The notes under the pieces were generated by a model. That model had not been told where the DNA came from. It worked only from the letters and a program-made list of their open reading frames with translations, and did not search any database. A stretch of DNA of 64,000 bases from Escherichia coli (GTDB lineage: Bacteria > Pseudomonadota > Gammaproteobacteria > Enterobacterales > Enterobacteriaceae). The DNA lies in assembly GCF_016903815.1 (NCBI RefSeq), contig NZ_CP069973.1; one strand, written 5' to 3'. The translations under genes and the position numbers were made by a program. Positions 3,813-61,745 of the stretch are shown in pieces (the first letter of the stretch is position 1; each line of letters starts with the position of its first letter).

Positions 3813-4232
3813 TCAAAGAAACCATTCCGGCTTAACACCAAATCGGGCTGAAAGTGCCTTAATGTGGGATATCGTCAGGGATCGTTGCCCAGACAAAATC
3901 TGACTGACCAGGGATTTAGAGCCGATTTCGTTCTTCAAATCCGCGTAGGTCAGATTATGTTGATCAATCAGCGTACGAAGTAACGCCACGCCAACCGGCA
4001 TTGCTGCAACGGCTTTGTCGAACTCGGCAAACTTTTCGTTGTTGTTTTCATATTCTGCAATGCGGCTCGCCAGAAAGTCGATAAGTGGATTGGTGTCATC
4101 TTCTTCAATCAAATATTCGACCAGTTCCAGTGCTTCACGATAATCATCTTCTGAGTCACTACCTCCCAGAAAGGGGACTGCATTGACCAGTTCTCTTGTT
4201 GCTTTAACAGCGCGTGCAGCATTAGCAGTCAT
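3813..4232 (-). CDS. HigA-like antitoxin, XRE-family HTH
   Basis: 139-aa ORF; C-terminal HTH (EIGSKSLVSQILSGQRSLTISHIKALSARFGV) resembling E. coli HigA; overlaps upstream toxin gene by 4 bp. Confidence 0.75.
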   Translation of the reverse strand: MTANAARAVKATRELVNAVPFLGGSDSEDDYREALELVEYLIEEDDTNPLIDFLASRIAEYENNNEKFAEFDKAVAAMPVGVALLRTLIDQHNLTYADLKNEIGSKSLVSQILSGQRSLTISHIKALSARFGVKPEWFL

Positions 4233-4540
4233 TCTTTGTTCTCTCTGTAGTAACGTGTCAGTTTGTCATACTCTGCGTGATTCGTTATGTGCTTCACAAA
4301 GAACCGCTTATTAACAAAGTTTATGTAGGCAATAACCCTAAGATTGTTCCCGCCGACATCCAGAACGTACCATTTGTTGCGATATCTAAAATTGTCGAGG
4401 TTGGGAAACGCCGTTCGCATTTCTTCTGGTGTAGAAAAATCCGTTTCCTTAATAACCCGATACAATGAGTATAGAGCCAGAGCGTCGTTAGGATATTTGC
4501 GCGCACACTCTTCAAATGGCGCTTTCGAAATGATGTGCAT
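4229..4540 (-). CDS. HigB-like toxin (RelE/ParE superfamily mRNA interferase)
   Basis: 103-aa ORF resembling E. coli HigB (MH.I...A..D...KYP...FP.LDNF.Y....YV..VGGN.LRV.A...F......I....H.EYD); toxin-first order typical of higBA; AAGGAAG RBS. Confidence 0.75.
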   Translation of the reverse strand: MHIISKAPFEECARKYPNDALALYSLYRVIKETDFSTPEEMRTAFPNLDNFRYRNKWYVLDVGGNNLRVIAYINFVNKRFFVKHITNHAEYDKLTRYYRENKE

Positions 4541-5580: not shown

Positions 5581-6344
5581 CGGATACGCGCCTCTTCAAC
5601 AACATGATTCAGATGGCTGACAATCTCGTTCAGACGCGGATCGTTTTCCGCTTCCAGCCAGCGTGCAACCTGCTCTTCGCCCTGCCCTAACTGTGTCAGG
5701 AAGTCATCGGCAATCTGGCGACCGTAACGGTAACCCGCCAGGCGGCGAGCTTCGCGATCCACTTTCACGCGCAGCGGCTGCACCATATCGCCATGCAGGA
5801 TCTCCGCCGGTTGTTCATCCTGCTCACCCGGCCCACGGGCGTGAATTTTCTGCTCCAGCAGGCCGAGCGCCATTGCAAAGCCGTACAGCGTGGCGGCAGG
5901 CGTTGGCGGGCAGCCAGGGATATAAACATCCACCGGGACGATTTTATCCGTACCGCCCCACACGCAGTAGAGATCGTGGAAGATCCCGCCGCTGTTACCG
6001 CAGGCACCGTAGGAGATACAAATTTTCGGGTCCGGCGCGGACTGCCACGCACGCAGCGCAGGGGATCGCATTGCACGGGTGACCGCGCCGGTAAACAGTA
6101 AAATATCCGCATGACGCGGTGAAGGAACGACTTTAATGCCGAAGCGTTCTGCATCAAACAGCGGCGAAAGCGTGGCGAAAATTTCGATTTCGCAGCCGTT
6201 GCAGCCGCCGCAGTCCACGCGGTAAACGTAGGCAGAACGTTTGATTTTTTTCAGTAACGACGCCTTCATGCTGGCGATGGATTCATCCACCGTCATCGGG
6301 ACCGGAATGCCGTTGGCGTCACGGGGGCCTAATAAATTGCTCAT
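5577..6344 (-). CDS. hycG: Hydrogenase 3 small subunit (NuoB-like)
   Basis: 255-aa ORF with Cys-rich FeS motifs ([14 protein letters not shown]). Confidence 0.9.
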
Positions 6345-15391: not shown

Positions 15392-16398
15392 ATAATATCC
15401 AACTCGCCCACGGTAGCGGCGGCCAGGCGATGCAGCAATTAATCAACAGCCTGTTTATGGAAGCCTTTGCCAACCCGTGGCTGGCAGAGCAGGAAGATCA
15501 GGCCCGTCTTGATCTGGCGCAGCTGGTAGCGGAAGGCGACCGTCTGGCGTTCTCCACCGACAGTTACGTCATTGACCCGCTGTTCTTTCCTGGCGGTAAT
15601 ATCGGCAAGCTGGCGATTTGCGGCACCGCGAATGACGTAGCGGTCAGTGGCGCTATTCCGCGCTATCTCTCCTGTGGCTTTATCCTCGAAGAAGGATTGC
15701 CGATGGAGACACTGAAAGCCGTAGTGACCAGCATGGCAGAAACCGCCCGCGCGGCAGGCATTGCCATCGTCACTGGCGATACTAAAGTGGTGCAGCGCGG
15801 CGCGGCAGATAAACTGTTTATCAACACCGCTGGCATGGGCGCAATTCCGGCGAATATTCACTGGGGCGCACAGACGCTAACCGCAGGCGATGTATTGCTG
15901 GTTAGCGGTACACTCGGCGACCACGGGGCGACTATCCTTAACCTGCGTGAGCAGCTGGGGCTGGATGGCGAACTGGTCAGCGACTGCGCGGTGCTGACGC
16001 CGCTTATTCAGACGCTGCGTGACATTCCCGGCGTGAAAGCGCTGCGTGATGCCACCCGTGGTGGTGTGAACGCGGTAGTTCATGAGTTCGCGGCAGCCTG
16101 CGGTTGCGGTATTGAAATTTCAGAAGCGGCACTGCCGGTTAAACCTGCTGTGCGCGGCGTTACCGAACTGCTGGGACTGGACGCCCTTAACTTTGCCAAC
16201 GAAGGCAAACTGGTGATCGCCGTTGAACGCAACGCGGCAGAGCAAGTGCTGGCAGCGTTACATTCCCATCCACTGGGAAAAGACGCGGCGCTGATTGGTG
16301 AAGTGGTGGAACGTAAAGGTGTTCGTCTTGCCGGTCTGTATGGCGTGAAACGAACCCTCGATCTACCGCACGCCGAACCGCTTCCGCGTATATGCTAA
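15388..16398 (+). CDS. hypE: Hydrogenase maturation carbamoyl dehydratase HypE
   Basis: 336-aa ORF; AIR-synthase-like fold; C-terminal PRIC. Confidence 0.9.
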   Translation: MNNIQLAHGSGGQAMQQLINSLFMEAFANPWLAEQEDQARLDLAQLVAEGDRLAFSTDSYVIDPLFFPGGNIGKLAICGTANDVAVSGAIPRYLSCGFILEEGLPMETLKAVVTSMAETARAAGIAIVTGDTKVVQRGAADKLFINTAGMGAIPANIHWGAQTLTAGDVLLVSGTLGDHGATILNLREQLGLDGELVSDCAVLTPLIQTLRDIPGVKALRDATRGGVNAVVHEFAAACGCGIEISEAALPVKPAVRGVTELLGLDALNFANEGKLVIAVERNAAEQVLAALHSHPLGKDAALIGEVVERKGVRLAGLYGVKRTLDLPHAEPLPRIC

Positions 16399-16471
16399 TA
16401 AAATTCTAAATCTCCTATAGTTAGTCAATGACCTTTTGCACCGCTTTGCGGTGCTTTCCTGGAAGAACAAA

Positions 16472-18550
16472 ATGTCATATACACCGATGAGTGATCTCGG
16501 ACAACAAGGGTTGTTCGACATCACTCGGACACTATTGCAGCAGCCCGATCTGGCCTCGCTGTGTGAGGCTCTTTCGCAACTGGTAAAGCGTTCTGCGCTC
16601 GCCGACAACGCGGCTATTGTGTTGTGGCAAGCGCAGACTCAACGTGCGTCTTATTACGCATCGCGTGAAAAAGACACCCCCATTAAATATGAAGACGAAA
16701 CTGTTCTGGCACACGGTCCGGTACGCAGCATTTTGTCGCGCCCTGATACGCTGCATTGCAGTTACGAAGAATTTTGTGAAACCTGGCCGCAGCTGGCCGC
16801 AGGTGGGCTATACCCCAAATTTGGTCACTATTGCCTGATGCCACTGGCGGCGGAAGGGCATATTTTTGGTGGCTGTGAATTTATTCGTTATGACGATCGC
16901 CCCTGGAGCGAAAAAGAGTTCAATCGTCTGCAAACATTTACGCAGATCGTTTCTGTCGTCACCGAACAAATCCAGAGCCGCGTCGTCAATAATGTCGACT
17001 ATGAGTTGTTATGCCGGGAGCGCGATAACTTCCGCATCCTGGTTGCCATTACCAACGCGGTGCTTTCCCGCCTGGATATGGACGAACTGGTCAGCGAAGT
17101 CGCCAAAGAAATCCATTACTACTTCGACATTGACGATATCAGCATCGTCTTACGCAGCCACCGTAAAAACAAACTCAACATCTACTCCACTCACTATCTT
17201 GATAAACAGCATCCCGCCCACGAACAGAGCGAAGTCGATGAAGCCGGAACCCTCACCGAACGCGTGTTCAAAAGTAAAGAGATGTTGTTGATTAATCTCC
17301 ACGAGCGGGACGATTTAGCCCCCTATGAACGCATGTTGTTCGACACCTGGGGCAACCAGATTCAAACCTTGTGCCTGTTACCGCTGATGTCTGGCAACAC
17401 CATGCTGGGCGTGCTGAAACTGGCGCAATGCGAAGAGAAAGTATTTACCACTACCAATCTGAGCTTACTGCGCCAGATTGCCGAACGTGTGGCAATCGCT
17501 GTCGATAACGCCCTCGCCTATCAGGAAATTCATCGTCTGAAAGAACGGCTGGTTGATGAAAACCTCGCCCTGACCGAGCAGCTCAACAATGTTGATAGTG
17601 AATTTGGCGAGATTATTGGCCGCAGCGAAGCCATGTACAGCGTACTTAAACAAGTTGAAATGGTGGCGCAAAGTGACAGTACCGTGCTGATCCTCGGTGA
17701 AACTGGCACGGGTAAAGAGCTGATTGCCCGTGCTATCCATAATCTCAGTGGGCGTAATAATCGCCGCATGGTCAAAATGAACTGCGCGGCAATGCCTGCC
17801 GGATTGCTGGAGAGCGATCTGTTTGGTCATGAGCGTGGGGCTTTTACCGGTGCCAGCGCCCAGCGTATCGGTCGTTTTGAACTGGCGGATAAAAGCTCCC
17901 TGTTCCTCGACGAAGTGGGCGATATGCCACTGGAGTTACAGCCGAAGTTGCTGCGTGTATTACAGGAACAGGAGTTTGAACGTCTCGGCAGCAACAAAAT
18001 CATTCAGACGGACGTGCGTCTAATCGCCGCAACTAACCGCGATCTGAAAAAAATGGTCGCCGACCGTGAGTTCCGTAGCGATCTCTATTACCGCCTGAAT
18101 GTATTCCCGATCCACCTGCCGCCACTACGCGAGCGTCCGGAAGATATTCCGCTGCTGGCGAAAGCCTTTACCTTCAAAATTGCCCGTCGTCTGGGGCGCA
18201 ATATCGACAGCATTCCTGCGGAGACGCTGCGCACCTTGAGCAACATGGAGTGGCCGGGTAACGTACGCGAACTGGAAAATGTCATTGAGCGCGCGGTATT
18301 GCTAACACGCGGCAACGTGCTGCAGCTGTCATTGCCTGATATTGCTTTACCGGAGCCTGAAACGCCGCCTGCCGCAACGGTTGTCGCCCAAGAGGGCGAA
18401 GATGAATATCAGTTGATTGTTCGCGTGCTGAAAGAAACCAACGGCGTGGTTGCCGGGCCTAAAGGCGCTGCGCAACGTCTGGGGCTGAAACGCACGACCC
18501 TGCTGTCACGGATGAAGCGGCTTGGAATTGATAAATCGGCATTGATTTAA
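16472..18550 (+). CDS. fhlA: Formate hydrogenlyase transcriptional activator (sigma-54 enhancer-binding protein)
   Basis: 692 aa from MSYTPMSDLGQQG; AAA+ sigma-54 activator motifs (GETGTGKE, GAFTGA) and C-terminal HTH. Confidence 0.9.
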   Translation: MSYTPMSDLGQQGLFDITRTLLQQPDLASLCEALSQLVKRSALADNAAIVLWQAQTQRASYYASREKDTPIKYEDETVLAHGPVRSILSRPDTLHCSYEEFCETWPQLAAGGLYPKFGHYCLMPLAAEGHIFGGCEFIRYDDRPWSEKEFNRLQTFTQIVSVVTEQIQSRVVNNVDYELLCRERDNFRILVAITNAVLSRLDMDELVSEVAKEIHYYFDIDDISIVLRSHRKNKLNIYSTHYLDKQHPAHEQSEVDEAGTLTERVFKSKEMLLINLHERDDLAPYERMLFDTWGNQIQTLCLLPLMSGNTMLGVLKLAQCEEKVFTTTNLSLLRQIAERVAIAVDNALAYQEIHRLKERLVDENLALTEQLNNVDSEFGEIIGRSEAMYSVLKQVEMVAQSDSTVLILGETGTGKELIARAIHNLSGRNNRRMVKMNCAAMPAGLLESDLFGHERGAFTGASAQRIGRFELADKSSLFLDEVGDMPLELQPKLLRVLQEQEFERLGSNKIIQTDVRLIAATNRDLKKMVADREFRSDLYYRLNVFPIHLPPLRERPEDIPLLAKAFTFKIARRLGRNIDSIPAETLRTLSNMEWPGNVRELENVIERAVLLTRGNVLQLSLPDIALPEPETPPAATVVAQEGEDEYQLIVRVLKETNGVVAGPKGAAQRLGLKRTTLLSRMKRLGIDKSALI

Positions 18551-18594
18551 CAGATGTGGTTATACTCGATCAACATTCAATGAAAGGAGGCAGT

Positions 18595-19023
18595 ATGGCA
18601 GTTTCAGCAAGAAATCAATTAACCGGAACAGTTAGCGCAGTAGCAATGGGCGCTGTGAATGATGAAGTAGAACTGACGCTGGCAGGTGGTGCAAAGCTGG
18701 TGGCAATTGTGACTCACAGCAGCCAGCAAGCGCTGGGTCTGGCGAAAGGGAAAGAAGCGATTGCCCTGATTAAAGCCCCGTGGGTAACGCTGGCAACGGA
18801 AGGCTGTGGACTGAAATTCTCTGCTCGCAACCAGTTTGCTGGCAGCGTGTCGACAATCACCGAAGGCGCAGTGAACGCCACTGTCCATATCAAAACGGAT
18901 GCGGGTTTTGAAATTGTGGCAGTGGTAACAAATGAAAGTCAGGATGAAATGAAACTCACCACTGGCTCGCGCGTTATTGCATTGATCAAAGCATCAGCCA
19001 TCCTGATTGCCACCAAAGCGTAA
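18595..19023 (+). CDS. Molbindin: tandem TOBE/Mop-domain molybdate-binding protein
   Basis: About 142 aa from MAVSARNQLTGTV; two repeated Mop-like halves (SARNQ..G.V..I..GAVNA.V); AAGGAGG RBS 5 nt upstream; 45 bp after fhlA stop. Confidence 0.7.
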   Translation: MAVSARNQLTGTVSAVAMGAVNDEVELTLAGGAKLVAIVTHSSQQALGLAKGKEAIALIKAPWVTLATEGCGLKFSARNQFAGSVSTITEGAVNATVHIKTDAGFEIVAVVTNESQDEMKLTTGSRVIALIKASAILIATKA

Positions 19024-19061
19024 ACGCCTTATTTGCCGGAGAGTATGGCTCTCCGGCAGAT

Positions 19062-19406
19062 TTATTTCTTTGGACGATATTTTTCTGGCAACTCCGGCAC
19101 CGGACGCTTGTCATCGATGAGATGACGCACGGTTAAGATCGGATGACGCCACAGCATTCTCGGCCCGGCCCAACGCATAATCTGTTTCATCTCTTCACGC
19201 TTTGCAGGCTGGTAACAGTGCACCGGACACTGCTTACAGGCTGGTTTCTCTTCGCCGAACACACATTTATCCAGCCGCTTTTGCGCGTAGGCAAACAGCG
19301 CGTCGTAATGCTCCGGCTCCGCTGACGCCTGCGGGCATTTCGCTTGATAAAGATCGATCATTTTTTTAATCGTCAGTTTTTCACGAGAGATACGCTTGCC
19401 GGACAT
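19062..19406 (-). CDS. ygbA: Conserved cysteine-rich protein YgbA
   Basis: 114-aa ORF, position between fhlA region and mutS as in E. coli. Confidence 0.75.
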   Translation of the reverse strand: MSGKRISREKLTIKKMIDLYQAKCPQASAEPEHYDALFAYAQKRLDKCVFGEEKPACKQCPVHCYQPAKREEMKQIMRWAGPRMLWRHPILTVRHLIDDKRPVPELPEKYRPKK

Positions 19407-19692
19407 GCTGCCTCCATACTCTTAAGGTGTATTTATATTACAACTTAATTTGAAAGGGGACTATGGCTCTGAAGGAGGAGGTTTATTCAACCGACGCAAT
19501 TTTGCGTACCTGCTTCATAAGCATCACGCAAAAGCTGCAAAACAGCATCTTTCCCGGAATCACCATCAAGAACTCGCCGTTCGCTTCTTCCCCTGAAATG
19601 ATTAACTCCGGTATCATGTGCGCCTTATGTGATTACAACGAAAATAAAAACCATCACACCTCATTTAATATCAGGGAACCGGACATAACCCC

Positions 19693-22254
19693 ATGAGTGC
19701 AATAGAAAATTTCGATGCCCATACGCCCATGATGCAGCAGTATCTCAAGCTGAAAGCCCAGCATCCCGAGATCCTGCTGTTTTACCGGATGGGTGATTTT
19801 TATGAACTGTTTTATGACGACGCAAAACGCGCGTCGCAACTGCTGGATATTTCACTGACCAAACGCGGTGCTTCGGCGGGAGAGCCGATCCCGATGGCGG
19901 GGATCCCCTACCATGCGGTGGAAAACTACCTCGCCAAACTGGTGAATCAGGGCGAGTCCGTTGCCATCTGCGAACAAATTGGCGATCCAGCGACCAGCAA
20001 AGGTCCGGTTGAGCGCAAAGTTGTGCGTATCGTTACGCCGGGCACCATCAGCGATGAAGCGCTGTTGCAGGAGCGTCAGGATAACCTGCTGGCGGCTATC
20101 TGGCAGGACAGCAAAGGTTTCGGCTACGCGACGCTGGATATCAGTTCCGGGCGTTTTCGCCTGAGCGAACCGGCTGACCGCGAAACGATGGCGGCAGAGC
20201 TGCAACGCACTAATCCGGCAGAGCTGTTGTATGCAGAAAATTTCGCCGAGATGTCGCTGATTGAAGGTCGTCGCGGACTGCGCCGTCGCCCGCTGTGGGA
20301 GTTTGAAATCGACACCGCGCGCCAGCAGTTGAATCTGCAATTTGGCACCCGCGATCTGGTCGGTTTTGGCGTCGAGAACGCGCCGCGCGGACTTTGTGCT
20401 GCCGGTTGTCTGTTGCAGTATGCGAAAGATACTCAACGCACGACCCTGCCGCATATTCGTTCTATCACCATGGAACGTGAGCAGGACAGCATCATTATGG
20501 ATGCCGCGACGCGTCGTAACCTGGAAATTACCCAGAACCTGGCGGGCGGTGCGGAAAATACGCTGGCTTCTGTGCTCGACTGCACCGTCACGCCGATGGG
20601 CAGCCGTATGCTGAAACGCTGGCTGCATATGCCAGTGCGCGATACCCGCGTCTTGCTTGAGCGCCAGCAAACTATTGGCGCATTGCAGGATTTCACCGCC
20701 GAGCTGCAGCCGGTACTGCGTCAGGTCGGCGACCTGGAACGTATTCTGGCGCGTCTGGCTTTACGAACTGCTCGCCCACGCGATCTGGCCCGTATGCGTC
20801 ACGCTTTCCAGCAACTGCCGGAGCTGCGCGCGCAGTTAGAAAATGTCGATAGCGCTCCGGTACAGGCGCTGCGTGAAAAAATGGGCGAGTTTGCCGAGCT
20901 GCGCGATCTGCTGGAGCGAGCAATCATCGACACACCGCCGGTGCTGGTACGCGACGGTGGTGTTATCGCACCGGGCTATAACGAAGAGCTGGATGAGTGG
21001 CGCGCGCTGGCTGACGGCGCGACCGATTATCTGGAGCGTCTGGAAGTCCGCGAGCGTGAACGTACTGGCCTGGACACCCTGAAAGTCGGCTTTAACGCGG
21101 TTCATGGTTATTACATTCAGATCAGCCGTGGACAAAGCCATCTGGCACCCATCAATTACATGCGTCGCCAGACGCTGAAAAACGCCGAGCGCTACATTAT
21201 TCCAGAGCTAAAAGAGTACGAAGACAAAGTTCTCACTTCAAAAGGCAAAGCACTGGCACTGGAAAAACAGCTTTATGAAGAGCTGTTCGACCTGCTGTTG
21301 CCGCATCTGGAAGCGTTGCAACAGAGCGCGAGCGCACTGGCGGAACTCGACGTGCTGGTGAACCTGGCGGAACGGGCCTATACCCTGAACTACACCTGCC
21401 CGACCTTTATTGATAAACCGGGTATTCGCATCACCGAAGGCCGCCATCCGGTGGTTGAACAGGTGCTGAATGAGCCGTTTATCGCCAACCCGCTGAACCT
21501 GTCGCCGCAGCGTCGCATGTTGATCATTACCGGTCCGAATATGGGCGGTAAAAGTACCTATATGCGCCAGACCGCACTGATTGCGCTGATGGCCTACATC
21601 GGCAGCTATGTACCGGCACAAAAAGTCGAGATTGGACCTATCGATCGCATCTTTACCCGCGTAGGGGCAGCGGATGATCTGGCATCCGGGCGTTCAACCT
21701 TTATGGTGGAAATGACCGAAACCGCCAATATTTTACATAACGCCACCGAGTACAGTCTGGTACTGATGGATGAGATTGGGCGCGGGACGTCCACTTACGA
21801 TGGTCTGTCGCTGGCGTGGGCGTGCGCGGAAAATCTGGCGAATAAGATTAAAGCGTTGACGTTGTTTGCCACCCACTATTTCGAGCTGACCCAGTTACCG
21901 GAGAAAATGGAAGGCGTCGCCAACGTGCATCTCGATGCACTGGAGCACGGCGACACCATTGCCTTTATGCACAGCGTGCAGGATGGCGCGGCGAGCAAAA
22001 GCTACGGCCTGGCGGTTGCAGCCCTTGCGGGCGTGCCAAAAGAGGTGATCAAACGCGCGCGGCAGAAACTGCGTGAGCTGGAGAGCATTTCGCCGAATGC
22101 CGCCGCGACGCAGGTAGATGGCACGCAGATGTCTTTGCTGTCCGTACCAGAAGAAACTTCGCCTGCGGTCGAGGCACTGGAAAACCTCGACCCGGATTCA
22201 CTGACTCCGCGTCAGGCGCTGGAGTGGATTTATCGCTTGAAGAGTCTGGTGTAA
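19693..22254 (+). CDS. mutS: DNA mismatch repair protein MutS
   Basis: 853 aa; N-terminal mismatch-binding domain (GDFYELF), Walker [10 protein letters not shown]. Confidence 0.95.
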
Positions 22255-29072: not shown

Positions 29073-29106
29073 TAAAAAGGTCCGATGGGCATCGGACCTT
29101 TTATTT
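29073..29106. terminator. Bidirectional rho-independent terminator between ygbN and decarboxylase operon
   Basis: AAAAA-ggtccgat-gggc-atcggacc-TTTTATTT; 8-bp GC-rich stem flanked by A and T runs. Confidence 0.7.
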
Positions 29107-29341
29107 AGCGCTTACCTTCCGCCAGCAGCGGCGGGATGCTCGGCACCATCGGCGCGTCATCAATATCTTTCTGTGTCATGCGGAACGCTTCGGGATAATG
29201 TTCGCGGCTGGTGCGGCGTAGCGGTTCGGTATCGCGCCAGGTATAGAGGCAATGCTGGCACTGGTAGACCGTCCAGACATCTTTTACCGGCGATTTCGCC
29301 ATCACTTCAATCTGTTCATCAGCACAACGTGGACAAATCAT
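29105..29341 (-). CDS. ecdD: Small subunit D of non-oxidative hydroxyarylic acid decarboxylase
   Basis: 78 aa with zinc-ribbon-like CPRC...CQHC; directly downstream of UbiD-like gene. Confidence 0.7.
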   Translation of the reverse strand: MICPRCADEQIEVMAKSPVKDVWTVYQCQHCLYTWRDTEPLRRTSREHYPEAFRMTQKDIDDAPMVPSIPPLLAEGKR

Positions 29342-29351
29342 CTTGTTCTCC

Positions 29352-30779
29352 TTATTTACGTGCGGCCAGCATAGCGGTCAGTTTTTCAGCCCAGGCTTTG
29401 GTTTCCGGTAAATCCACCACCGGCTGGCTGTAGTGACCACGGTTGTCCGGGGCGACAGGCGTGGTGGCGTCGATAATCAGCTTGTCGGTGATACCGGCCG
29501 GGCTTGAGCCGGGGTCGAGTTCCAGCACGGACATATTCGGCAACTGCACCAAATCCCCTGCCGGGTTCACTTTCGAAGAGAGCGCCCACATCACCTGCGG
29601 CAGGTTGAACGGATCAACGTCTTCATCGACCATAATCACCATCTTCACGTAGCCCAGACCGTGTGGCGTGGTCATCGCACGCAGGCCCACCGCGCGGGCA
29701 AAGCCACCGTAGCGTTTTTTGGTGGAGATAATCGCCAGCAGGCCGTGGGTGTACATGGCGTTCACCGCCTGCACTTCCGGGAACTCGGCTTTCAGTTGCT
29801 GATACAGCGGCACGCAGGTGGCTGGCCCCATCAGGTAGTCGATTTCTGTCCACGGCATGCCGAGGTACAGCGATTCGAAAATCGGCCTGGTGCGGTAAGA
29901 GACTTTATCGATACGCACCACGGTCATGTTACGCCCGCCGGAGTAGTGCCCGGTAAACTCACCGAACGGCCCTTCGATTTCGCGTTTACGACTTTCGATG
30001 ACCCCTTCGAGGATCACTTCTGAACCCCACGGCACATCAAAACCAGTCAGCGGGGCGGTGGCGATCGGGTACGGGCTTTCACGCAGCGCGCCTGCCATTT
30101 CGTACTCGGACTGATCATATTTCAGCGGCGTGGCCCCCATCAGCGTGATGATCGGATCGTTACCCAAGGTGATGGCAATCGGCAGATCTTCACCGCGTTC
30201 TTCCGCTTTATGCAGATGCAGGGCGATATCGTGCATCGGCACCGGTTGCAGGCCGAGCTTACGTTTGCCCTTCACTTCCATACGATAGATACCGACGTTC
30301 TGCTTGCCGAAGTTATCCGGGTCGAGCGGATCGCGGGAAACCACGCACGCTTTGTCGAGATAGAAACCGCCATCGCCATCGTTTAAACGAAACAGCGGCA
30401 GGATATCGAACAGGTTGATCTCGTCGCCATCGACGGTGTTCTGCGCCCAGGCTGGATTGGCGCGGCGCTCCGGGGCAATCGGGAAGTTATCCCAGCGGCG
30501 GATAAACTCATCAATCTGCTTTTTGACCGGGGTGTTTGGCGGCAGGCCGAGGGAAATCGCGTGGTTCTGCCAGGAACCGATGGTATTCATCGCCACACGG
30601 GCATCGGTAAAGCCGCGAATATTGTCAAACCACAGCGCGGGCGCGCCGTCGCCGATACGCCCGGTGGCGTTAGCTGCTGCTGCCAGATCCGGTTCCGCGT
30701 TCACCTCTTCGCTGATTTTCAGTAACTGTCCGTGGTCATCAAGCGCCTGTAAAAAGCTGCGTAAATCATCAAATGCCAT
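29352..30779 (-). CDS. ecdC: UbiD-family (prFMN-dependent) aromatic acid decarboxylase subunit C
   Basis: 475 aa; UbiD-family similarity throughout. Confidence 0.8.
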   Translation of the reverse strand: MAFDDLRSFLQALDDHGQLLKISEEVNAEPDLAAAANATGRIGDGAPALWFDNIRGFTDARVAMNTIGSWQNHAISLGLPPNTPVKKQIDEFIRRWDNFPIAPERRANPAWAQNTVDGDEINLFDILPLFRLNDGDGGFYLDKACVVSRDPLDPDNFGKQNVGIYRMEVKGKRKLGLQPVPMHDIALHLHKAEERGEDLPIAITLGNDPIITLMGATPLKYDQSEYEMAGALRESPYPIATAPLTGFDVPWGSEVILEGVIESRKREIEGPFGEFTGHYSGGRNMTVVRIDKVSYRTRPIFESLYLGMPWTEIDYLMGPATCVPLYQQLKAEFPEVQAVNAMYTHGLLAIISTKKRYGGFARAVGLRAMTTPHGLGYVKMVIMVDEDVDPFNLPQVMWALSSKVNPAGDLVQLPNMSVLELDPGSSPAGITDKLIIDATTPVAPDNRGHYSQPVVDLPETKAWAEKLTAMLAARK

Positions 30780-31372
30780 TATTCATTCTCCTGAGAAAAA
30801 TTCCGGACCTGCGGCAATCCTTGCCAGCGCCTGGCGTGGGGATGTTCGAGGCCAAATTGATCCAGCACGCGGGCTACCACGTGGTGGACAATGTCATCTA
30901 CCGTTTCGGGATGGTTATAAAAGGCAGGCATCGGCGGCACCATCGCCACGCCCATGCGTGAAAGTGCGAGCATATTTTCGAGATGGATGGTGCTAAGCGG
31001 CATTTCACGCGGCACCAGCACTAGTTTGCGGCCTTCTTTGAGCACGACGTCCGCCGCGCGCCCTACCAGGCCATCGGCGTAACCGACACGGATACCGGCG
31101 AGCGTTTTCATACTGCACGGAATAACGATCATGCCGTCGGTACGAAAGGAACCTGAGGAGATGGTCGCCGCCTGATCCGCCGGGTTATGACTGAAGTCTG
31201 CGAGGGCAGCAACATCGCGAGCGCTGTAAGGCGTTTCCAGTTCAATGGTGGTTTTCGCCCACTTCGACATCACCAGATGAGTCTCGACATTCGGCATCTC
31301 CCGCAGCGCTTGCAGTAATGCCACCCCAAGAGGCGCACCGGTAGCCCCTGTCATCCCGACGATCAGTCTCAT
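30779..31372 (-). CDS. ecdB: UbiX-like flavin prenyltransferase (decarboxylase subunit B)
   Basis: 197 aa; UbiX/Pad1 motifs (GMTGATGA, IVIPCSMKTLAG). Confidence 0.8.
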   Translation of the reverse strand: MRLIVGMTGATGAPLGVALLQALREMPNVETHLVMSKWAKTTIELETPYSARDVAALADFSHNPADQAATISSGSFRTDGMIVIPCSMKTLAGIRVGYADGLVGRAADVVLKEGRKLVLVPREMPLSTIHLENMLALSRMGVAMVPPMPAFYNHPETVDDIVHHVVARVLDQFGLEHPHARRWQGLPQVRNFSQENE

Positions 31373-31518
31373 TGTTTATTCTCTTAATTGTTCGTATACG
31401 AACGTTATTATTAAAATACGCCTCTGTTTTCATCGCGGCAAGCACTGAAAAGTAACAACATCTTCTTCGTCACTGAAAAACCGCTATGATAGCAGCAGAT
31501 AGTTTGCCCGGAGTTTAC

Positions 31519-31926
31519 ATGGCGTTACGAAATAAAGCGTTCCATCAGTTACGACAGCTTTTTCAGCAGCACACGGCTCGCTGGCAGCACGAGTTACCTG
31601 ACCTCACCAAACCACAGTACGCGGTGATGCGCGCCATTGCTGATAAGCCTGGTATCGAACAGGTGGCACTGATAGAAGCAGCAGTCAGCACCAAAGCAAC
31701 GCTGGCAGAAATGTTGGCAAGAATGGAAAATCGTGGCTTAGTCAGACGTGAACATGACGCCGCTGACAAGCGGCGTCGCTTTGTCTGGCTGACTGCCGAA
31801 GGAGAAAAGGTACTTGCTGCGGCGATCCCCATTGGTGACAGTGTGGATGAGGAATTTTTGGGGCGTTTGAGTGCAGAAGAGAAGGAGCTGTTTATGCAGT
31901 TGGTGCGCAAGATGATGAGCAAATAG
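31519..31926 (+). CDS. MarR-family transcriptional regulator, divergent from decarboxylase operon
   Basis: Winged-helix MarR signature; start placed at ATG 31519 with GGAG RBS (ORF track begins 31486). Confidence 0.75.
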   Translation: MALRNKAFHQLRQLFQQHTARWQHELPDLTKPQYAVMRAIADKPGIEQVALIEAAVSTKATLAEMLARMENRGLVRREHDAADKRRRFVWLTAEGEKVLAAAIPIGDSVDEEFLGRLSAEEKELFMQLVRKMMSK

Positions 31927-43187: not shown

Positions 43188-43765
43188 CGGTTTATCCCCG
43201 CTGACGCGGGGAACACGTCAATAGGCGGCGTCCCGTAGCCGTCCCCTTCGGTTTATCCCCGCTGGCGCGGGGAACACGTTGAGGTCGATAAGTACGAACG
43301 GTTTCCCTGCGGTTTATCCCCGCTGGCGCGGGGAACACGATCGCCTGCTCCAGCGTCACTCCCTGCCCCTCGATTTATCCCCGCTGGCGCGGGGAACACT
43401 TCTGATACGTACTGAGGCCGGTTGTGATACGCGATTTATCCCCGCTGGCGCGGGGAACACTAACCCCCAATGAAGTTAATAAAGTCTATGGCCGATTTAT
43501 CCCCGCTGGCGCGGGGAACACATGAGATTAAAATACTCAGTACTCTTACTCGCCGATTTATCCCCGCTGGCGCGGGGAACACCAGCGTGGCGCGATAAAG
43601 CAATGTGTCTGGCTCGATTTATCCCCGCTGGCGCGGGGAACACCAGAGGCAACCGACGCGGATTCAGTAGGAAAGCGATTTATCCCCGCTGGCGCGGGGA
43701 ACACCGATAGACACTTTGCGGTCATTGTCTATTCGGCGATTTATCCCCGCTGGCGCGGGGAACAC
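43188..43765 (-). CRISPR. Type I-E CRISPR array: 10 repeats of 29 bp, 9 spacers of 32 bp
   Basis: Repeats start at 43188, 43249, 43310, 43371, 43432, 43493, 43554, 43615, 43676, 43737 (61-bp period); plus-strand consensus CGGTTTATCCCCGCTGGCGCGGGGAACAC; repeat 1 is degenerate (GCTGACGCG); repeats 4-10 carry CGATTT variant. Confidence 0.97.
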
Positions 43766-43861
43766 ACTAAGCATACATAACTGTTTTTAAACAAATTTAT
43801 TCCGCATCAACAATCTACCAACTAAATTAAAACATTTCCTTATTTTTAAAGAACAGATAAC
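43766..43861 (-). promoter_or_regulatory. AT-rich CRISPR leader between array and cas2
   Basis: About 95 bp AT-rich sequence adjacent to the non-degenerate repeat end. Confidence 0.75.
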
Positions 43862-45071
<1,210 letters not shown>

Positions 45072-45075
<4 letters not shown>

Positions 45076-45722
45076 GCCTCTGCTCCGGGTTTGATCAGCA
45101 TCAGACCACAGCCGAACGCGCGGCTTTTGCCATACCCCTGGCTCAGACGTTGCAGAAATAACCCAGGATCGGTGACCGTAAGCATCCCCGTATAATCCAC
45201 GCTACTGAACTGGATCAGTTGCCGGGAGTTTTCCCGCCGCAGTTGCTGTTGTCGGTAGGCATCGACCGAGGTATCCAGTAGTGTAAAACCGCTTCTTTCC
45301 CCCTGCGCTGCCAGCCAGTCCAGCGCCGCCTGTTGTTGATGCAACCAGACATCACTTCCTTCCACCTGCCCCCTCACCTGCCGTTTCGCCTCCATCAGCA
45401 AGTCGTGGCGTTTGCCCGCTTTACAAATTGTTGGATTCGCCCGCAGGTTGAAACAAAGGGATTGTCCGGTACGCAACTCTGGCGCAAATGGTCGGCATTC
45501 GATGGTGAAAATATCACTTTCCGCCGGGCGTTCCTGCGACAGGACAAAAAAGCGAAACGCCCCCTGGAGTTCTTCCCGACGATAAAGAAATTGCCTTTCT
45601 TTGCCGCCAGGAAAAAGATCCCACAGCCACTGATGCATTACATATTCACCGCGACCCACCAAATGCAGCAACTGCGCAGGCAAAAGCTGGCCGGTATGTA
45701 AGGTTATTCTTGAGAGGTACAT
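45072..45722 (-). CDS. cas6e: Cas6e (CasE) pre-crRNA endoribonuclease
   Basis: About 216 aa from MYLSRITL; ORF-track N-terminal extension overlaps cas5e and is rejected. Confidence 0.85.
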
Positions 45723-46450
45723 GGTTCCTCCTTGCTGAGCCACGGCCCCTGATTGATGGTGCGTTCCCCAAACAGCCACTGCTGACGATTTAAAGGAACA
45801 TCCCGGCGACGTAATATTTTGCTCGCGACCAGGCCGTCGTGTTCCCCTTCCCACCAGCATTCATCCTGAAGTTTCGGGAGTGAGACTTTCAGTTCGCGGA
45901 AACTATCCTGATACTGTTGGTATGCGTTACGTAAGACATCAGACGCGTTGCCTTCGAGCAGTAACGGCGCAAGTGGTAACGCCAGCGGATGACTTTTTCG
46001 CCCCAGATAAAGCGGAAAAACCGGATGACGTAAACCGTCCTGCAACTGTTCAAGCCTGTAAGACGCATCGGGGGTTGTTGCCACCGCCACCATCCACCAG
46101 GCATCGGTGTAGTAGTCGCGCCGGGAGATAATCGCGCTCAGAAGATCAGGGGCGCTCAACTCTTCGCGACGGCTGAAATAACGCGCTTTACGCACCTCTT
46201 TTGGCATCTGGACCGTGTGATAATCCCGTGCCCAGCGCGGGTTACGGCTGGCGCAAACCACCAGTGAATAGTGGCGGTTAAACGCGTTTAATCGTTCGGT
46301 ATCATCACGCCGAATCCCTACCCCGGCAGCCAGCAGCCCCAGCAATGCTGAGCGCGAAGGCAGTTCATGGGTATGACGCACTTCGCCGGGGGCATCGACG
46401 CCCCAGGATGCCATTGGCCCATGAAGCTGAAAAATCAAATATTGGCTCAT
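45704..46450 (-). CDS. cas5: Cas5e (CasD) Cascade subunit
   Basis: 248 aa; MSQYLIFQLHGPMASWG matches Cas5e N-terminal motif; GGGGCGG RBS. Confidence 0.85.
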   Translation of the reverse strand: MSQYLIFQLHGPMASWGVDAPGEVRHTHELPSRSALLGLLAAGVGIRRDDTERLNAFNRHYSLVVCASRNPRWARDYHTVQMPKEVRKARYFSRREELSAPDLLSAIISRRDYYTDAWWMVAVATTPDASYRLEQLQDGLRHPVFPLYLGRKSHPLALPLAPLLLEGNASDVLRNAYQQYQDSFRELKVSLPKLQDECWWEGEHDGLVASKILRRRDVPLNRQQWLFGERTINQGPWLSKEEPCTSQE

Positions 46451-46460
46451 TAGCCGCCCC

Positions 46461-47516
46461 TTACGCGCAGATAAAGTCCAGCACGTCCTTCATGCTTCCC
46501 TGTTTGTTCATCACGTCAAAGCTTACGCATTCGGTCTTCTGTTCATAGACCGTATTCATATTTTCGCGAAGCGTTGTAATACGCTGCACCGCCACATCTA
46601 ACTGCCGGGTGCCATTAATGGGTTCATAGAAAGCCGCCGCCAGAGAGCGTGGTTGTTCAGTGCCTTTTTCTGCCAGCGCCCAGGAGGCGTAGGCACGGCT
46701 GGCAAAGCTGTTCTGTTTGCCGGTTGGGGAGACTTTAAGTGCGGCTTCCGTAAAGGCGCGCAAGGTCTGATTAGCTAACGCTTCGTCACCGCCGAGGTTT
46801 TCGACCAGCAGATCTTTATCGATGCAGATATAGGTGTAGAACAGCGCAGAACCGAATCCGGTTTCACCAAGATGCCCGGCACCGGCATCTTCAGAAGCCT
46901 GGCGCAAATCATCAACGGCGGTGAAAAAATCATCTTCGACAATCGTTTCACTGACACCAAATGCATGCGCGACCTGGCAGGCGGCTTCAACATTAAATTC
47001 GGGTTTATTCGCCAGCATACGACCAAACATAGCGATATCTACCGCCATGCGATCTTTACGTAACAAAGCGAGATCTTCCTCTTTTGGCGCGCGCTTTTCT
47101 TCGGCCAGTTGATGGGCCAGCGCTTTTACGGCGTCAAATTCTGCCGGGCTGATATGGACTAGCTGTTCAGTTTCGGCGTTAGTGAGCGGATCTTTTGGTT
47201 TTTTGTCGTTTTTAGCTTTCCCAAGATAATCCGCAATTTTTGCCGCCCATTCGATGGCTTTTTTCTCTTCGATGCCTTTCTCAATCAGGATAGTTGCCGC
47301 CTCACGCGCAATACGCCCACTGCGAATACCAATATGGCCCGCCAGTGCCTGTTCAAAAAGTGCAGAAGTGCGCCACGCACGTTTCAGACTTTGTGAGGAA
47401 ACGCGCAGACGCGTTGCTCCACCCAGTACCACAGTTTTTGGCGCACCGGTGTCATCACGGTTAAGGTTGGCAGCAGGGTAAGCGGTTAACAAATGAAGCT
47501 GAATAAATGTCGTCAT
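46461..47516 (-). CDS. cas7: Cas7e (CasC) Cascade backbone subunit
   Basis: 351 aa; N-terminal IQLHLLTAYPAANLNRDD resembles K-12 CasC. Confidence 0.85.
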   Translation of the reverse strand: MTTFIQLHLLTAYPAANLNRDDTGAPKTVVLGGATRLRVSSQSLKRAWRTSALFEQALAGHIGIRSGRIAREAATILIEKGIEEKKAIEWAAKIADYLGKAKNDKKPKDPLTNAETEQLVHISPAEFDAVKALAHQLAEEKRAPKEEDLALLRKDRMAVDIAMFGRMLANKPEFNVEAACQVAHAFGVSETIVEDDFFTAVDDLRQASEDAGAGHLGETGFGSALFYTYICIDKDLLVENLGGDEALANQTLRAFTEAALKVSPTGKQNSFASRAYASWALAEKGTEQPRSLAAAFYEPINGTRQLDVAVQRITTLRENMNTVYEQKTECVSFDVMNKQGSMKDVLDFICA

Positions 47517-47530
47517 GAGATAGTCCTTTA

Positions 47531-48067
47531 TTAATTTTGTTCGTTATCGGCGTCGCCAGCCTGGTAATATTCCAGCGCCCAGCGGATACGGATAAATTCT
47601 GTTGGCCGCTGCTGGCGGCGGTGATGATTGAGCAGGTCGTCGCTCTCCTGGCACCAGCGGAAAATATCTTCTGCCAAAGAGATAAGATTGACGGAACCAT
47701 TTAATAATTTGACCGCGCGACGTAACTGACGCAGTAAATCATCAGGCGTTTTTACTGCCGACAGGCGAGTAAAACGCCCCTCCGACATTACCGCCGCCAG
47801 CTGCGCGGCAAAAGGCTGCCGTTCATCAATAGCTTTAACATTGGCGCTAACTGCGGCGACCAGCGCCAGTGCGGTAAAACGCCACTCTTGTGCTTCAATT
47901 TTCCACAAAGTGTGGGTCTGCATCAGCAGAGAACGAAACCCTTCTGACAGACAAACATCATTAACCGTTGTGCTACGCCGCAGACTGGCACGATTGCCGC
48001 GTTTTTCCTGCAACTCTTCGTGCCATTTACGCAGCGTGGCTTTGTGCTCCTCTTTTACAATACTCAT
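47531..48067 (-). CDS. cse2: Cse2 (CasB) Cascade small subunit
   Basis: 178-aa basic alpha-helical ORF between cse1 and cas7. Confidence 0.8.
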   Translation of the reverse strand: MSIVKEEHKATLRKWHEELQEKRGNRASLRRSTTVNDVCLSEGFRSLLMQTHTLWKIEAQEWRFTALALVAAVSANVKAIDERQPFAAQLAAVMSEGRFTRLSAVKTPDDLLRQLRRAVKLLNGSVNLISLAEDIFRWCQESDDLLNHHRRQQRPTEFIRIRWALEYYQAGDADNEQN

Positions 48068-49626
48068 TCAGCAGCCTCCTGCTTTTTCTCCCTGGCGGCT
48101 TTAGCATTTTGCTTCTCCGCCGATGTTGTAAAATATTTCTTGCGCGCGGTCATGACGCGTTTCAAATCAACGGGCTCATATGGATTGGTGAAGACACGCT
48201 CGTCAAAATCCTGACGCGCGAATAACCAAATTTCCTTTTGCCATTTGCTGAGTAATTCATCCGCATCCTGACCTTCTTCAATGTGGCGCACTAACCTCAG
48301 GAAGCGATGCTGAGTTTTGTTCCAGAAGTCGATATCCACAAAACTGAAATCACCCCGTGCACCTTTTGGATCGGAGAACCACGCTTCTTTCAATGCACTC
48401 CGTAACAGACTCAGAATCCGTGAAGCCGTTTGCGCAGCCAGCCGCAGCTTCGGTATCTGGCCTTCTTTTTTATCGAGCAGCAGCGGAAAATGGTGTTCGT
48501 ACCAACAGCGCGCTTTCATGTTGTCAAAATCATAACCAAATCCCCACAGGCCCACTTTTGCCTGCTTGAGACTGCTGGCATTAAAGAGTTTCACCACCAG
48601 CGCGGGAAGTTCCGTATTGTTTTCTGATTTACCCGTTTCGATAAGGCCTAACCAGTCGCGCCAGATTAAACCGCCTGGTTGTGGTTTGACCGAGTAAAAC
48701 TCGCCGCCCTCTTTAAGGGGTACACGGTAAGGCGTTAAGGGATGCTGCCACATGGCATAATTCGCGCCGTAATTTTTGGTCGTCATCAGGCTCAGGAGCG
48801 CGTCGTTCTGCTCGCCGCAAATATCGCAGTTGCCGACTGTCGTGGTATTAAAATCAATACGAATACGCCGCGGCATTCCCCAGTACGCCTGGAGTTTATT
48901 AACCTGATCATCGGTTACCACCGCACCGGCCAGTTCGCTGGTACGCGTCGGGCCAAGCCAGGGGAAAACCAGATCGTCAAATTTTTTGGGTAGCGGTAAG
49001 TCGGCTTCGTCCTGCGGCATCACATTGAGCCACAGTTTGCGCCACAAGGGCGTTTGTTGATTGCCCTGATATTCCTGTAATTCAATCAGAGTGGTCATCG
49101 GCCCACCGCCGCGTAAACCGGTGCGGTAGCCTTTACCACCTGACGGCGCATTTAACTGTAGGGAGAACAGAGCTAACGCAGAACAATGTGGGCACAGGTA
49201 TTCCGTTACACCACGCTTGATAAAGTGGTCTTTATTAAACTTCGTTGTTTGAGCGCCGGGAATCTCAGGCAGTAGCGAAGCGACCTGAACTTTATCTCCT
49301 GTGAGCGCCTCGAAATCCTGCATAAATGAAGGGGAATCTGGCCCAAACTGGAAAGCGTGTTCTAAGGACAGCAATGCTTCCCGTAGCTTTTCAGATTCCA
49401 GTCCGTCTTCCCAGATATCATCCCAACGACGATGATCTTTTGGCGCAAAGCTGGTTTGTAGTAGCCCCAGCAAAAACTGCCATGCCGCTCCCTGGAGATC
49501 TGCCCGTGGCGCAGCAATATCGACAACATTTTCATCCGCCAGATCGACAGGCGCCAGTTTGCCTGTCGTTCCGTCTTTATAACGAACGGGCAACCACGGG
49601 GTTGTCAGAAGTGAAAACGAGTTCAT
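48064..49626 (-). CDS. cse1: Cse1 (CasA) Cascade large subunit
   Basis: About 520 aa from MNSFSLLTTPWLPV; start chosen 6 nt after GAGG (ORF track begins 49695). Confidence 0.8.
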   Translation of the reverse strand: MNSFSLLTTPWLPVRYKDGTTGKLAPVDLADENVVDIAAPRADLQGAAWQFLLGLLQTSFAPKDHRRWDDIWEDGLESEKLREALLSLEHAFQFGPDSPSFMQDFEALTGDKVQVASLLPEIPGAQTTKFNKDHFIKRGVTEYLCPHCSALALFSLQLNAPSGGKGYRTGLRGGGPMTTLIELQEYQGNQQTPLWRKLWLNVMPQDEADLPLPKKFDDLVFPWLGPTRTSELAGAVVTDDQVNKLQAYWGMPRRIRIDFNTTTVGNCDICGEQNDALLSLMTTKNYGANYAMWQHPLTPYRVPLKEGGEFYSVKPQPGGLIWRDWLGLIETGKSENNTELPALVVKLFNASSLKQAKVGLWGFGYDFDNMKARCWYEHHFPLLLDKKEGQIPKLRLAAQTASRILSLLRSALKEAWFSDPKGARGDFSFVDIDFWNKTQHRFLRLVRHIEEGQDADELLSKWQKEIWLFARQDFDERVFTNPYEPVDLKRVMTARKKYFTTSAEKQNAKAAREKKQEAAE

Positions 49627-49723
49627 ACGCATCCTCTCGTAAAAAAGACCATCCCAGGTCGGTTGTCCATCATTCCATCCTTTTCGGTGTATCAACTATT
49701 CAGAGAGCCCTGTCGCAGGCATC

Positions 49724-52617: not shown

Positions 52618-52770
52618 CTACTTCTTCGATTCGTAAGCGAGAACTGCCTTAAACTCCATACCACGTTCTCTGATACTCAACTCACACAACGAGTCGCCTA
52701 CCATCAGCGTGAATCCCAGTACTGTACAACACAGTACGATGATTGCCACAAGGGCATATTTTGTCAGCAT
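52618..52770 (-). CDS. Hok/Gef-family type I toxin (small membrane peptide)
   Basis: Hand-translated 50-aa [53 protein letters not shown]; GGGAGG RBS; Hok signature (TM helix, LCE, AYES); below ORF-track length cutoff. Confidence 0.75.
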
Positions 52771-60361: not shown

Positions 60362-60883
60362 ATGAAACATTCATTTGAAGTAAAACTTGCCGCTGTAAAT
60401 CATTACCTGGCTGGTCATGCAGGCATCATTTCTACGGCAAAACTCTTTCAACTTTCTCACACCAGCCTCTCACACTGGATTAATCTTTTTCTTCTTCACG
60501 GTCCTCGGGCACTGGATTGCAGACACAAGCGTAGCTATTCTCCTGAAGATAAACTTTGCGTGGTTCTTTATGCTCTCGGGCATTCTGAGTCTCTACCCCG
60601 GGTAGCTGCCCGGTTTAACATTCCCAGCCACAACACGGTTAAAAACTGGATAAAAGGCTACCGCAAATCTGGTAATGAGGCCTTTATCAGGCGCAGGAAG
60701 GAGAAAAGCATGACCCGTTCTGATGATACCCATGAAAACGAGGCAAACATGACGCCGGAAGAGATGAAGAATGAGCTACGTTATCTTCGCGCAGAAAATG
60801 CATATCTGAAAGCCATGCAGGAGCATCTCCTGGAAAAAAAGCGCCAGGAGCTGGAGAAAAAACGAAAGTCATCCGGAGCCTGA
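60362..60883 (+). CDS. insJ: IS150 OrfA (InsJ-like) HTH protein
   Basis: 173 aa from MKHSFEVKLAAVNHY; C-terminal leucine-zipper region; ends just after slippery site. Confidence 0.85.
   Translation: MKHSFEVKLAAVNHYLAGHAGIISTAKLFQLSHTSLSHWINLFLLHGPRALDCRHKRSYSPEDKLCVVLYALGHSESLPRVAARFNIPSHNTVKNWIKGYRKSGNEAFIRRRKEKSMTRSDDTHENEANMTPEEMKNELRYLRAENAYLKAMQEHLLEKKRQELEKKRKSSGA
60835..60841 (+). other. Programmed -1 ribosomal frameshift heptamer A-AAA-AAG linking orfA to orfB
   Basis: A AAA AAG in orfA frame at 60835..60841; orfB frame open from here to 61710. Confidence 0.7.
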
Positions 60884-60987
60884 GGTGCGGACACTGCCAG
60901 TCTGACCTGTTAAAGGCTGCAGGGCTGGCCAGAAGCACGCTGTACTACCAGCTGTCACTGCAGAAGGCTAAGGACAAGTATGCTGAT

Positions 60988-61745
<758 letters not shown>

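Follow-up and report, generated by a model that had tools for sequence, protein, structure and literature searches.

Oxyanion-binding sites of two kinds are common to the Tub, Mop, ModE and ModG proteins, as described for Tub of E. limosum (PMC11980592). The type-1 site is formed by the backbone of A20-V21-N22 on a three-fold axis, and the type-2 site by S4, R6, K60 and A61 together with residue 40 of the adjacent subunit (PMC11980592). Single-domain storage proteins of this class, such as MopII of C. pasteurianum (PDB 1GUG), Tub of E. limosum (PDB 9BEB) and Mop of S. ovata (PDB 1FR3), are chains of about 70 residues that assemble into hexamers. ModG of A. vinelandii (PDB 1H9J, 1H9K and 1H9M) is a cytoplasmic di-Mop protein of about 140 residues, which consists solely of two Mop/TOBE domains and forms a trimer that binds up to eight molybdates. 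Its gene is located among the mod genes for molybdate transport in a nitrogen fixer, and ModG is controlled by ModE and tied to the supply of the nitrogenase cofactor (as summarized in PMC11980592). The TudG/ModG architecture is represented by 5,379 proteins in the UHGG human-gut genomes (PMC11980592). The regulator ModE of E. coli carries a di-Mop with the same tandem-Mop fold at its C-terminus (PDB 1H9R/1H9S, 1B9M and 1O7L).

Here, we describe a gene for a protein of this class, referred to as the TOBE gene, which is located directly behind fhlA in E. coli. The analysed stretch of 64,000 nucleotides, called the window, matches at 100% the chromosome of strain 7/2, an E. coli from human faeces in Sweden. 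We found no study of the TOBE gene, of its linkage to fhlA or of its loss from K-12 in the searchable literature.

The TOBE gene and its product

The open reading frame of the TOBE gene begins with the ATG at 18595, ends with the TAA at 19021–19023 and encodes 142 residues (Table 1). The stop codon of fhlA at 18548–18550 is followed by a gap of 44 nucleotides, so that the TOBE start codon begins at the 45th base past the stop. The Shine-Dalgarno sequence AAGGAGG at 18584–18590, which is strong and kept among orthologues, ends four nucleotides upstream of the ATG. The initial annotation had placed an open reading frame of about 142 residues with this ribosome-binding site 45 bp past fhlA, and the coordinates and the gap given here agree with it. 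In the RefSeq annotation of strain 7/2, the identical coding sequence is WP_001521144.1, a "TOBE domain-containing protein" between fhlA and ygbA. The RefSeq/PGAP symbol for the formate hydrogenlyase activator is "flhA" across the E. coli collection, which may mislead text searches.

A longer reading frame of 155 residues, starting from the GTG at 18556, was rejected, since all 47 intact orthologues have 142 residues counted from the equivalent ATG, and the region upstream of the ATG is a non-coding spacer behind the fhlA stop in other genera. The N-terminus reads M-[AST]-[VI]-SARNQ in each of these 47 orthologues.

Table 1 Features of the fhlA–ygbA region in window coordinates
Feature	Position	Strand	Basis
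fhlA, formate hydrogenlyase transcriptional activator, immediate 5' neighbour	16472..18550	+	RefSeq annotation, ORF list
fhlA–TOBE spacer, 44 nt, with TATACT box and AAGGAGG	18551..18594	+	sequence
Segment missing in K-12-type E. coli	18552..19030	.	alignments; net 466 bp (~470 bp)
TOBE gene, predicted ModG-type di-Mop (tandem TOBE) oxyanion-binding protein	18595..19023	+	ORF, profiles, structure model
Mop/TOBE domain 1, residues 4–66	18604..18792	+	Pfam PF03459, E 1.6e-17
Mop/TOBE domain 2, residues 76–137	18820..19005	+	Pfam PF03459, E 6.2e-16
Intrinsic-terminator-like hairpin, 14-bp stem with 7 G-C pairs, T-run	19031..19061	+	scan
ygbA, nitrous-oxide-stimulated promoter family protein, convergent 3' neighbour, 114 aa	19062..19406	-	RefSeq annotation

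The NCBIfam model TIGR00638 "Mop" matches two stretches of the TOBE protein with 141.8 bits, compared with a cut-off of 55, and the two halves share 30 of 70 residues (43%). The Pfam and NCBIfam profiles detected no domain other than the two TOBE domains in the 142 residues, and hence no DNA-binding or other output domain. In a phmmer search, the best sequence match in the PDB was ModG of A. vinelandii (1H9J, E 6.3e-33, residues 1–140), followed by the di-Mop of E. coli ModE with an E-value of about 1e-14 and thereafter by single-domain Mop/Tub proteins. A single-chain AlphaFold2 model, calculated from an alignment of 30 sequences, had a pLDDT of 96.4 and a pTM of 0.88. The top Foldseek match of the model in the PDB was again ModG 1H9J (TM 0.95, rmsd 1.3 Å, 48% identity), and the second was the di-Mop of ModE (TM 0.88–0.90, 34% identity). 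The tandem Mop/TOBE identity that had been proposed from the sequence is thus borne out by the profile search, with its two PF03459 domains and the TIGR00638 match, and by the match to ModG.

Candidate ligand residues in domain 1, numbered as in Tub, are S4, R6, A20-V21-N22, T40, S43, K60 and A61. Their counterparts in domain 2 are shifted by 72 positions and comprise S76, R78, A92-V93-N94, T112, S115, K132 and A133. Across 30 homologues, which include ModG and reach down to sequence identities of 44–49%, each of these residues is invariant or nearly so (at least 90% conserved). The corresponding motifs SARN, GAVN, T-x-x-S and KA occur in both halves of the TOBE protein, as they do in ModG. 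The first Mop domain of ModE has SARNQ, T-x-x-S and KAPWV in common with the TOBE protein, whereas the second Mop domain of ModE lacks SARN and KA, both of which the TOBE protein keeps in both domains (sequence alignment by eye).

The full ligand sets and the ModG-like predicted fold identify the TOBE protein as a ModG-type di-Mop molbindin whose two halves both appear capable of binding. It is not a ModE, since the ModE model NF007957, which has a cut-off of 369 bits, gave a score of 87.1 bits and aligned solely over positions 124–261 of its 263 positions, with an E-value of 1e-24. Nor is it an ABC ATPase of the ModC/WtpC type, because it matched solely the last ~65 positions of those profiles, with 25–49 bits against cut-offs of 285–440. 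By analogy, the protein would form a trimer containing six Mop domains, with molybdate or tungstate bound at the three-fold axis and at the domain interfaces. Because two domains are fused in each chain, such a trimer would equal the hexamer of the Mop/Tub proteins. An assembly and a stoichiometry like those of the ModG trimer with its eight molybdates are likewise drawn from analogy.

Instead of molybdate, the TOBE protein might handle tungstate as a "TudG", sequestering it so that FDH-H and other molybdoenzymes do not acquire the wrong metal in the gut. Both oxyanions are bound by TOBE proteins, sequence does not separate molybdate from tungstate or disclose the physiological metal, and proteins of the TudG/ModG architecture are frequent in gut genomes (PMC11980592). 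However, the nearest relative of the TOBE protein is the molybdate-binding ModG. To our knowledge, E. coli has ModABC and contains neither TupA nor WOR. Together with the rule that ModA alone, in a genome with neither TupA nor a tungstoenzyme, predicts the use of Mo (PMC11980592), this gene content would favour Mo. We consider the tungstate function decidedly unlikely.

Transcription signals around the TOBE gene

In K-12-type strains, fhlA is the final gene of the hyp-fhlA cluster. Two promoters serve the hyp-fhlA unit: a sigma-54 promoter upstream of hypA, which depends on FhlA and formate, and an internal one that depends on FNR. In the scan, no terminator-like site was detected between fhlA and the TOBE gene. 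The strong terminator-like hairpin at 19031–19061 lies between the TOBE gene and the convergent ygbA and is shared with ygbA, and in K-12-type genomes the homologous hairpin is positioned directly 3' of fhlA. In the window, this hairpin is likely to be the end of the fhlA–TOBE transcript. Read-through from hyp-fhlA into the TOBE gene is likely, because the gap between fhlA and the TOBE gene contains no terminator and the strong hairpin follows the TOBE gene. With such a layout, the hyp-fhlA unit would end with the TOBE gene as its last cistron, and the co-transcription of the TOBE gene with fhlA is read from two features, the missing terminator and the short spacer. Given the promoters of the unit, the TOBE gene would be made under fermentative conditions.

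The TOBE gene may also have a promoter element of its own. The spacer contains the box TATACT at 18561–18566, 34 nucleotides upstream of the ATG and preceded by TGG-T. The pattern TATA[AC]N at a fixed distance from the ATG is present in 20 of 31 distinct orthologous spacers, as compared with about 3.5 in shuffled sequences, and the stricter TGN0-2YYATAMT in 11 of the 31, as compared with 0.12, although the spacers are phylogenetically related, so that these counts overstate independence. Box variants TATACT, TATAAA and TATAAC occur in Escherichia, Citrobacter, Pseudocitrobacter, Kluyvera, Pluralibacter and others. The pattern resembles the extended -10 of sigma-S/sigma-70 promoters that work without a -35 element, and TATACT may be the -10 element of the TOBE gene itself. 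No sigma-70 consensus promoter was found in a scan of 18000–19700. In Lelliottia, a hairpin-like sequence is located between fhlA and the TOBE gene, with a 92-nt spacer before the box, and the fhlA–TOBE spacer of C. amalonaticus measures 92–101 nt. Because of the hairpin-like sequence in the former and the long spacer in the latter, the TOBE gene is probably transcribed on its own in some species.

No match to an Rfam family was obtained at E<=1 in 16000–20000, and no riboswitch or other known RNA element was found there. ModE operators were sought with the consensus TATAT-N7-TAYAT, allowing up to two mismatches. The 44-nt spacer contained no ModE-operator-like site, and the 50 matches in the whole window are at the chance level of 44 +/- 8. 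The sequence TATAC-N6-AACAT resembles a ModE operator by eye; it was rejected for its wrong spacing and since its second half is not kept in Citrobacter or Kluyvera. Unlike the gene for ModG, the TOBE gene is positioned behind fhlA in the non-diazotrophic E. coli, with a spacer free of ModE-operator-like sites. The association of ModG with mod genes has no parallel here, as there is no mod gene within the 64-kb window.

Distribution, ancestry and the K-12-type deletion

Among 5426 complete E. coli genomes, 1892 carry the TOBE gene, always as a single chromosomal copy, and 1889 of these copies are full length. Carriers include an O25b:H4-ST131 isolate and presumably also clone D i14, because the K-12-type junction is missing there. 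The gene is missing from O157:H7 and from K-12 MG1655, in which fhlA and ygbA are separated by just 36 nt with no gene between them. A probe of 101 bp across the fhlA–ygbA junction of K-12, for which at least 80% coverage was required, detected the K-12-type deletion junction in 3505 genomes; together with 1889 carriers, these account for 5394 of the 5426.

The matched span is 685 bp in the K-12 type and 1151 bp in the window. The identity of the K-12 type to the window ends 1–2 nt past the fhlA stop and picks up again at the terminator hairpin. The deletion boundary alters the final codons of ygbA, so that its product has 117 residues in the K-12 type and 114 in the window. The alignments indicate that the lineage including K-12 and O157:H7 lost the TOBE gene through one deletion of about 470 bp.

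The comparison with other species was based on one genome per species. The order hypE-fhlA-TOBE-(ygbA)-(mutS), with genes in the same orientation, is found in E. albertii, a cryptic Escherichia clade, at least eight Citrobacter species and Pseudocitrobacter, and also in Klebsiella, Raoultella, Kluyvera, Enterobacter, Pluralibacter, Kosakonia, Yokenella and Lelliottia. E. fergusonii likewise has the hypE-fhlA-TOBE-ygbA arrangement. fhlA and the TOBE gene are linked in 36 species-level loci, and in 33 of them the spacer is 36–56 nt long. The TOBE proteins of these loci are 80–98% identical to the window copy, which equals or exceeds the identity of FhlA in the same loci. Because the hypE-fhlA-TOBE-ygbA synteny is conserved in more than a dozen genera, the carrier state is ancestral in Enterobacteriaceae.

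The absence of the TOBE gene from K-12 and from 65% of the complete E. coli genomes, together with Salmonella homologues that adjoin IS elements and fimbrial genes, could also be explained if the gene were a recently acquired accessory gene, brought into some E. coli by a small horizontal insertion. However, the gene has the same position and orientation in many genera, its divergence tracks that of the neighbouring genes, no mobile-element features flank it, and the genomes with an empty site share one junction. We regard a horizontal insertion as ruled out by the hypE-fhlA-TOBE-ygbA synteny and assign it very little probability. The initial annotation was right about the fhlA–ygbA interval of K-12, which contains no gene, and about the variation between strains, and the comparison across genera adds that this variation arose by deletion in the K-12 lineage and not by insertion.

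The dispensability of the TOBE gene in most E. coli genomes would also fit a decaying remnant or a spurious reading frame with no function. Against this stand the pairwise dN/dS values of 0.04–0.12 relative to orthologues, which represent strong purifying selection, the constant length of 142 residues in 47 orthologues, the invariant ligand residues, the conserved strong Shine-Dalgarno sequence and the full length of nearly all E. coli copies. The selection data contradict decay, and its probability is next to nil.

The linkage to fhlA is not universal. In Phytobacter, the TOBE gene is located directly behind hypE with no intact fhlA adjacent to it, and it seems from the sequences that fhlA was deleted and the TOBE gene kept. 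In the loci of Phytobacter/Kosakonia sp. S29 (L035, L040 and L047; positions ~5874–6010), the gap between hypE and the TOBE gene is about 135 nt and encodes, by eye, only an FhlA-like C-terminal tail (...KKMGMDKQAMT*). Orthologues from Serratia, Cedecea and Edwardsiella (68–72% identity) are found among unrelated genes. The reading frames in their flanks, judged by eye, resemble those for permeases, a peroxiredoxin, an aldehyde dehydrogenase and a synthase of the dapA type, and nothing related to Mo or FHL was recognized among them. Neighbours with a link to Mo or FHL were likewise not seen in the contexts outside Enterobacteriaceae sensu stricto. Salmonella enterica homologues are 87–89% identical, and neither of the two clusters examined is at fhlA. 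The Salmonella loci L052, L053, L055 and L056 are variable regions with a fimbrial usher and chaperone, IS21/IS66 fragments and a TetR regulator. A molybdopterin oxidoreductase/cytochrome b pair is also found among the neighbours of the Salmonella homologues.

From ygbA to mutS, the window and K-12 differ to an unusual degree, with 94.8% identity over 686 nt. Between these two genes lies a reading frame of 44 residues at 19483–19617 (- strand), annotated in RefSeq as a "hypothetical protein", in carriers and non-carriers alike. Strain 2018-05-2CC combines a MutS of the non-carrier type (WP_001272898.1, the same as in strain M10) with a divergent TOBE allele (locus L060, positions 596–1024), which has 95.6% nucleotide identity to the window and a C-terminus ending in ...TKT. 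Recombination in the mutS region is the likely cause of this pattern. The combination found in 2018-05-2CC means, therefore, that the presence or absence of the TOBE gene does not strictly follow lineage.

Several other features were noted in the window. A HigB-family toxin and an HTH antitoxin are encoded at 3813–4540 (- strand) between ascB and hycI; this pair is strain-variable, with at least 80% of a 900-bp stretch covered in 1091 of the 5426 complete E. coli genomes. The variable segment between mutS and rpoS (29105–31926) contains subunits B, C and D of a non-oxidative hydroxyarylic acid decarboxylase and a MarR-family regulator. A CRISPR array at 43191–43765 adjoins a complete type I-E cas operon, from cas2e to cas3, the whole region spanning 43191–52423, and a Hok/Gef family toxin gene follows the operon at 52618–52770. 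An IS3-family IS1397 transposase with a programmed frameshift (60362–61710, + strand) is inserted between ygcP and ygcQ.

Proposed function and its significance

Based on the similarity to ModG and the position of the gene, a function can be proposed. The TOBE protein is probably a cytoplasmic molybdate buffer or store of the ModG type, co-expressed with the genes for FHL maturation and regulation. When formate induces hyp-fhlA during fermentation, the TOBE gene would be co-transcribed with it, and its own -10 box might drive additional transcription. Three chains would assemble to give six Mop domains holding several molybdates, and the protein would retain molybdate for the synthesis of the molybdenum cofactor. 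The most obvious client would be FdhF of formate hydrogenlyase. By lowering free molybdate, the TOBE protein would touch ModE-dependent control only indirectly. The role has to be dispensable or conditional, because two thirds of the complete E. coli genomes are without the TOBE gene.

The initial annotation had suggested a regulatory link between Mo availability and FHL expression. In a form of this idea, the molybdate-loaded di-Mop would act as an adaptor that, with FhlA, ModE or MoeA, tunes the transcription of hyc, hyp and fdhF. The tight position behind fhlA is conserved in many genera, the 36–56-nt spacing and the missing terminator point to co-expression, and the protein resembles the molybdate-sensing di-Mop of ModE in sequence and predicted fold. 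In addition, maximal expression of fdhF and hyc has been reported to need ModE together with FhlA and formate; however, this dependence was described in K-12-type strains, which do not have the TOBE gene (PMC3149613). The TOBE protein has no output domain through which to regulate, and the full ligand sets in both of its Mop domains, aligned by eye, are like those of the storage protein ModG and unlike the second domain of ModE. Furthermore, Phytobacter keeps the gene with no intact fhlA beside it, and the contexts in Serratia, Cedecea, Edwardsiella and Salmonella are unrelated. The adaptor function is fairly unlikely. A storage or buffer role is better supported than a regulatory link from Mo to FHL, because the ModE dependence in K-12 exists without the TOBE gene and because the gene is kept away from fhlA elsewhere.

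We speculate, while holding it quite unlikely, that the di-Mop protein is a dedicated Mo module of the FHL regulon in Enterobacteriaceae, made together with FhlA, capturing molybdate during fermentation and either passing it on for the synthesis of the FdhF cofactor or informing FhlA or ModE of the Mo status. In that case, the textbook picture from K-12, in which Mo controls hyc and fdhF via ModE and MoeA only, would be a derived state that arose after the loss of the gene, and lineages that carry the gene, among them ExPEC clones like ST131, would differ in their response to Mo/W limitation in the gut.

Of what is described here, the TudG/ModG class and the RefSeq domain name are known, while the uncharacterized gene, its conserved and suggestive position and its deletion from K-12 appear to be new. 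The protein itself holds nothing unexpected, and as no more than a general store of molybdate it would be an ordinary member of a well-described family; the deletion in K-12 is of note to specialists in FHL and Mo homeostasis. Nearly all work on FHL and its dependence on molybdate was carried out in K-12, which is without the TOBE gene as a result of a lineage-specific deletion. About one third of complete E. coli genomes and most of the other Enterobacteriaceae examined encode a strongly conserved ModG-like protein right behind fhlA. Should the TOBE protein supply FdhF with molybdate, by buffering or by delivery, it would be an accessory factor that has been missing from the picture of FHL physiology and of the Mo/W homeostasis of enterobacteria in the gut.
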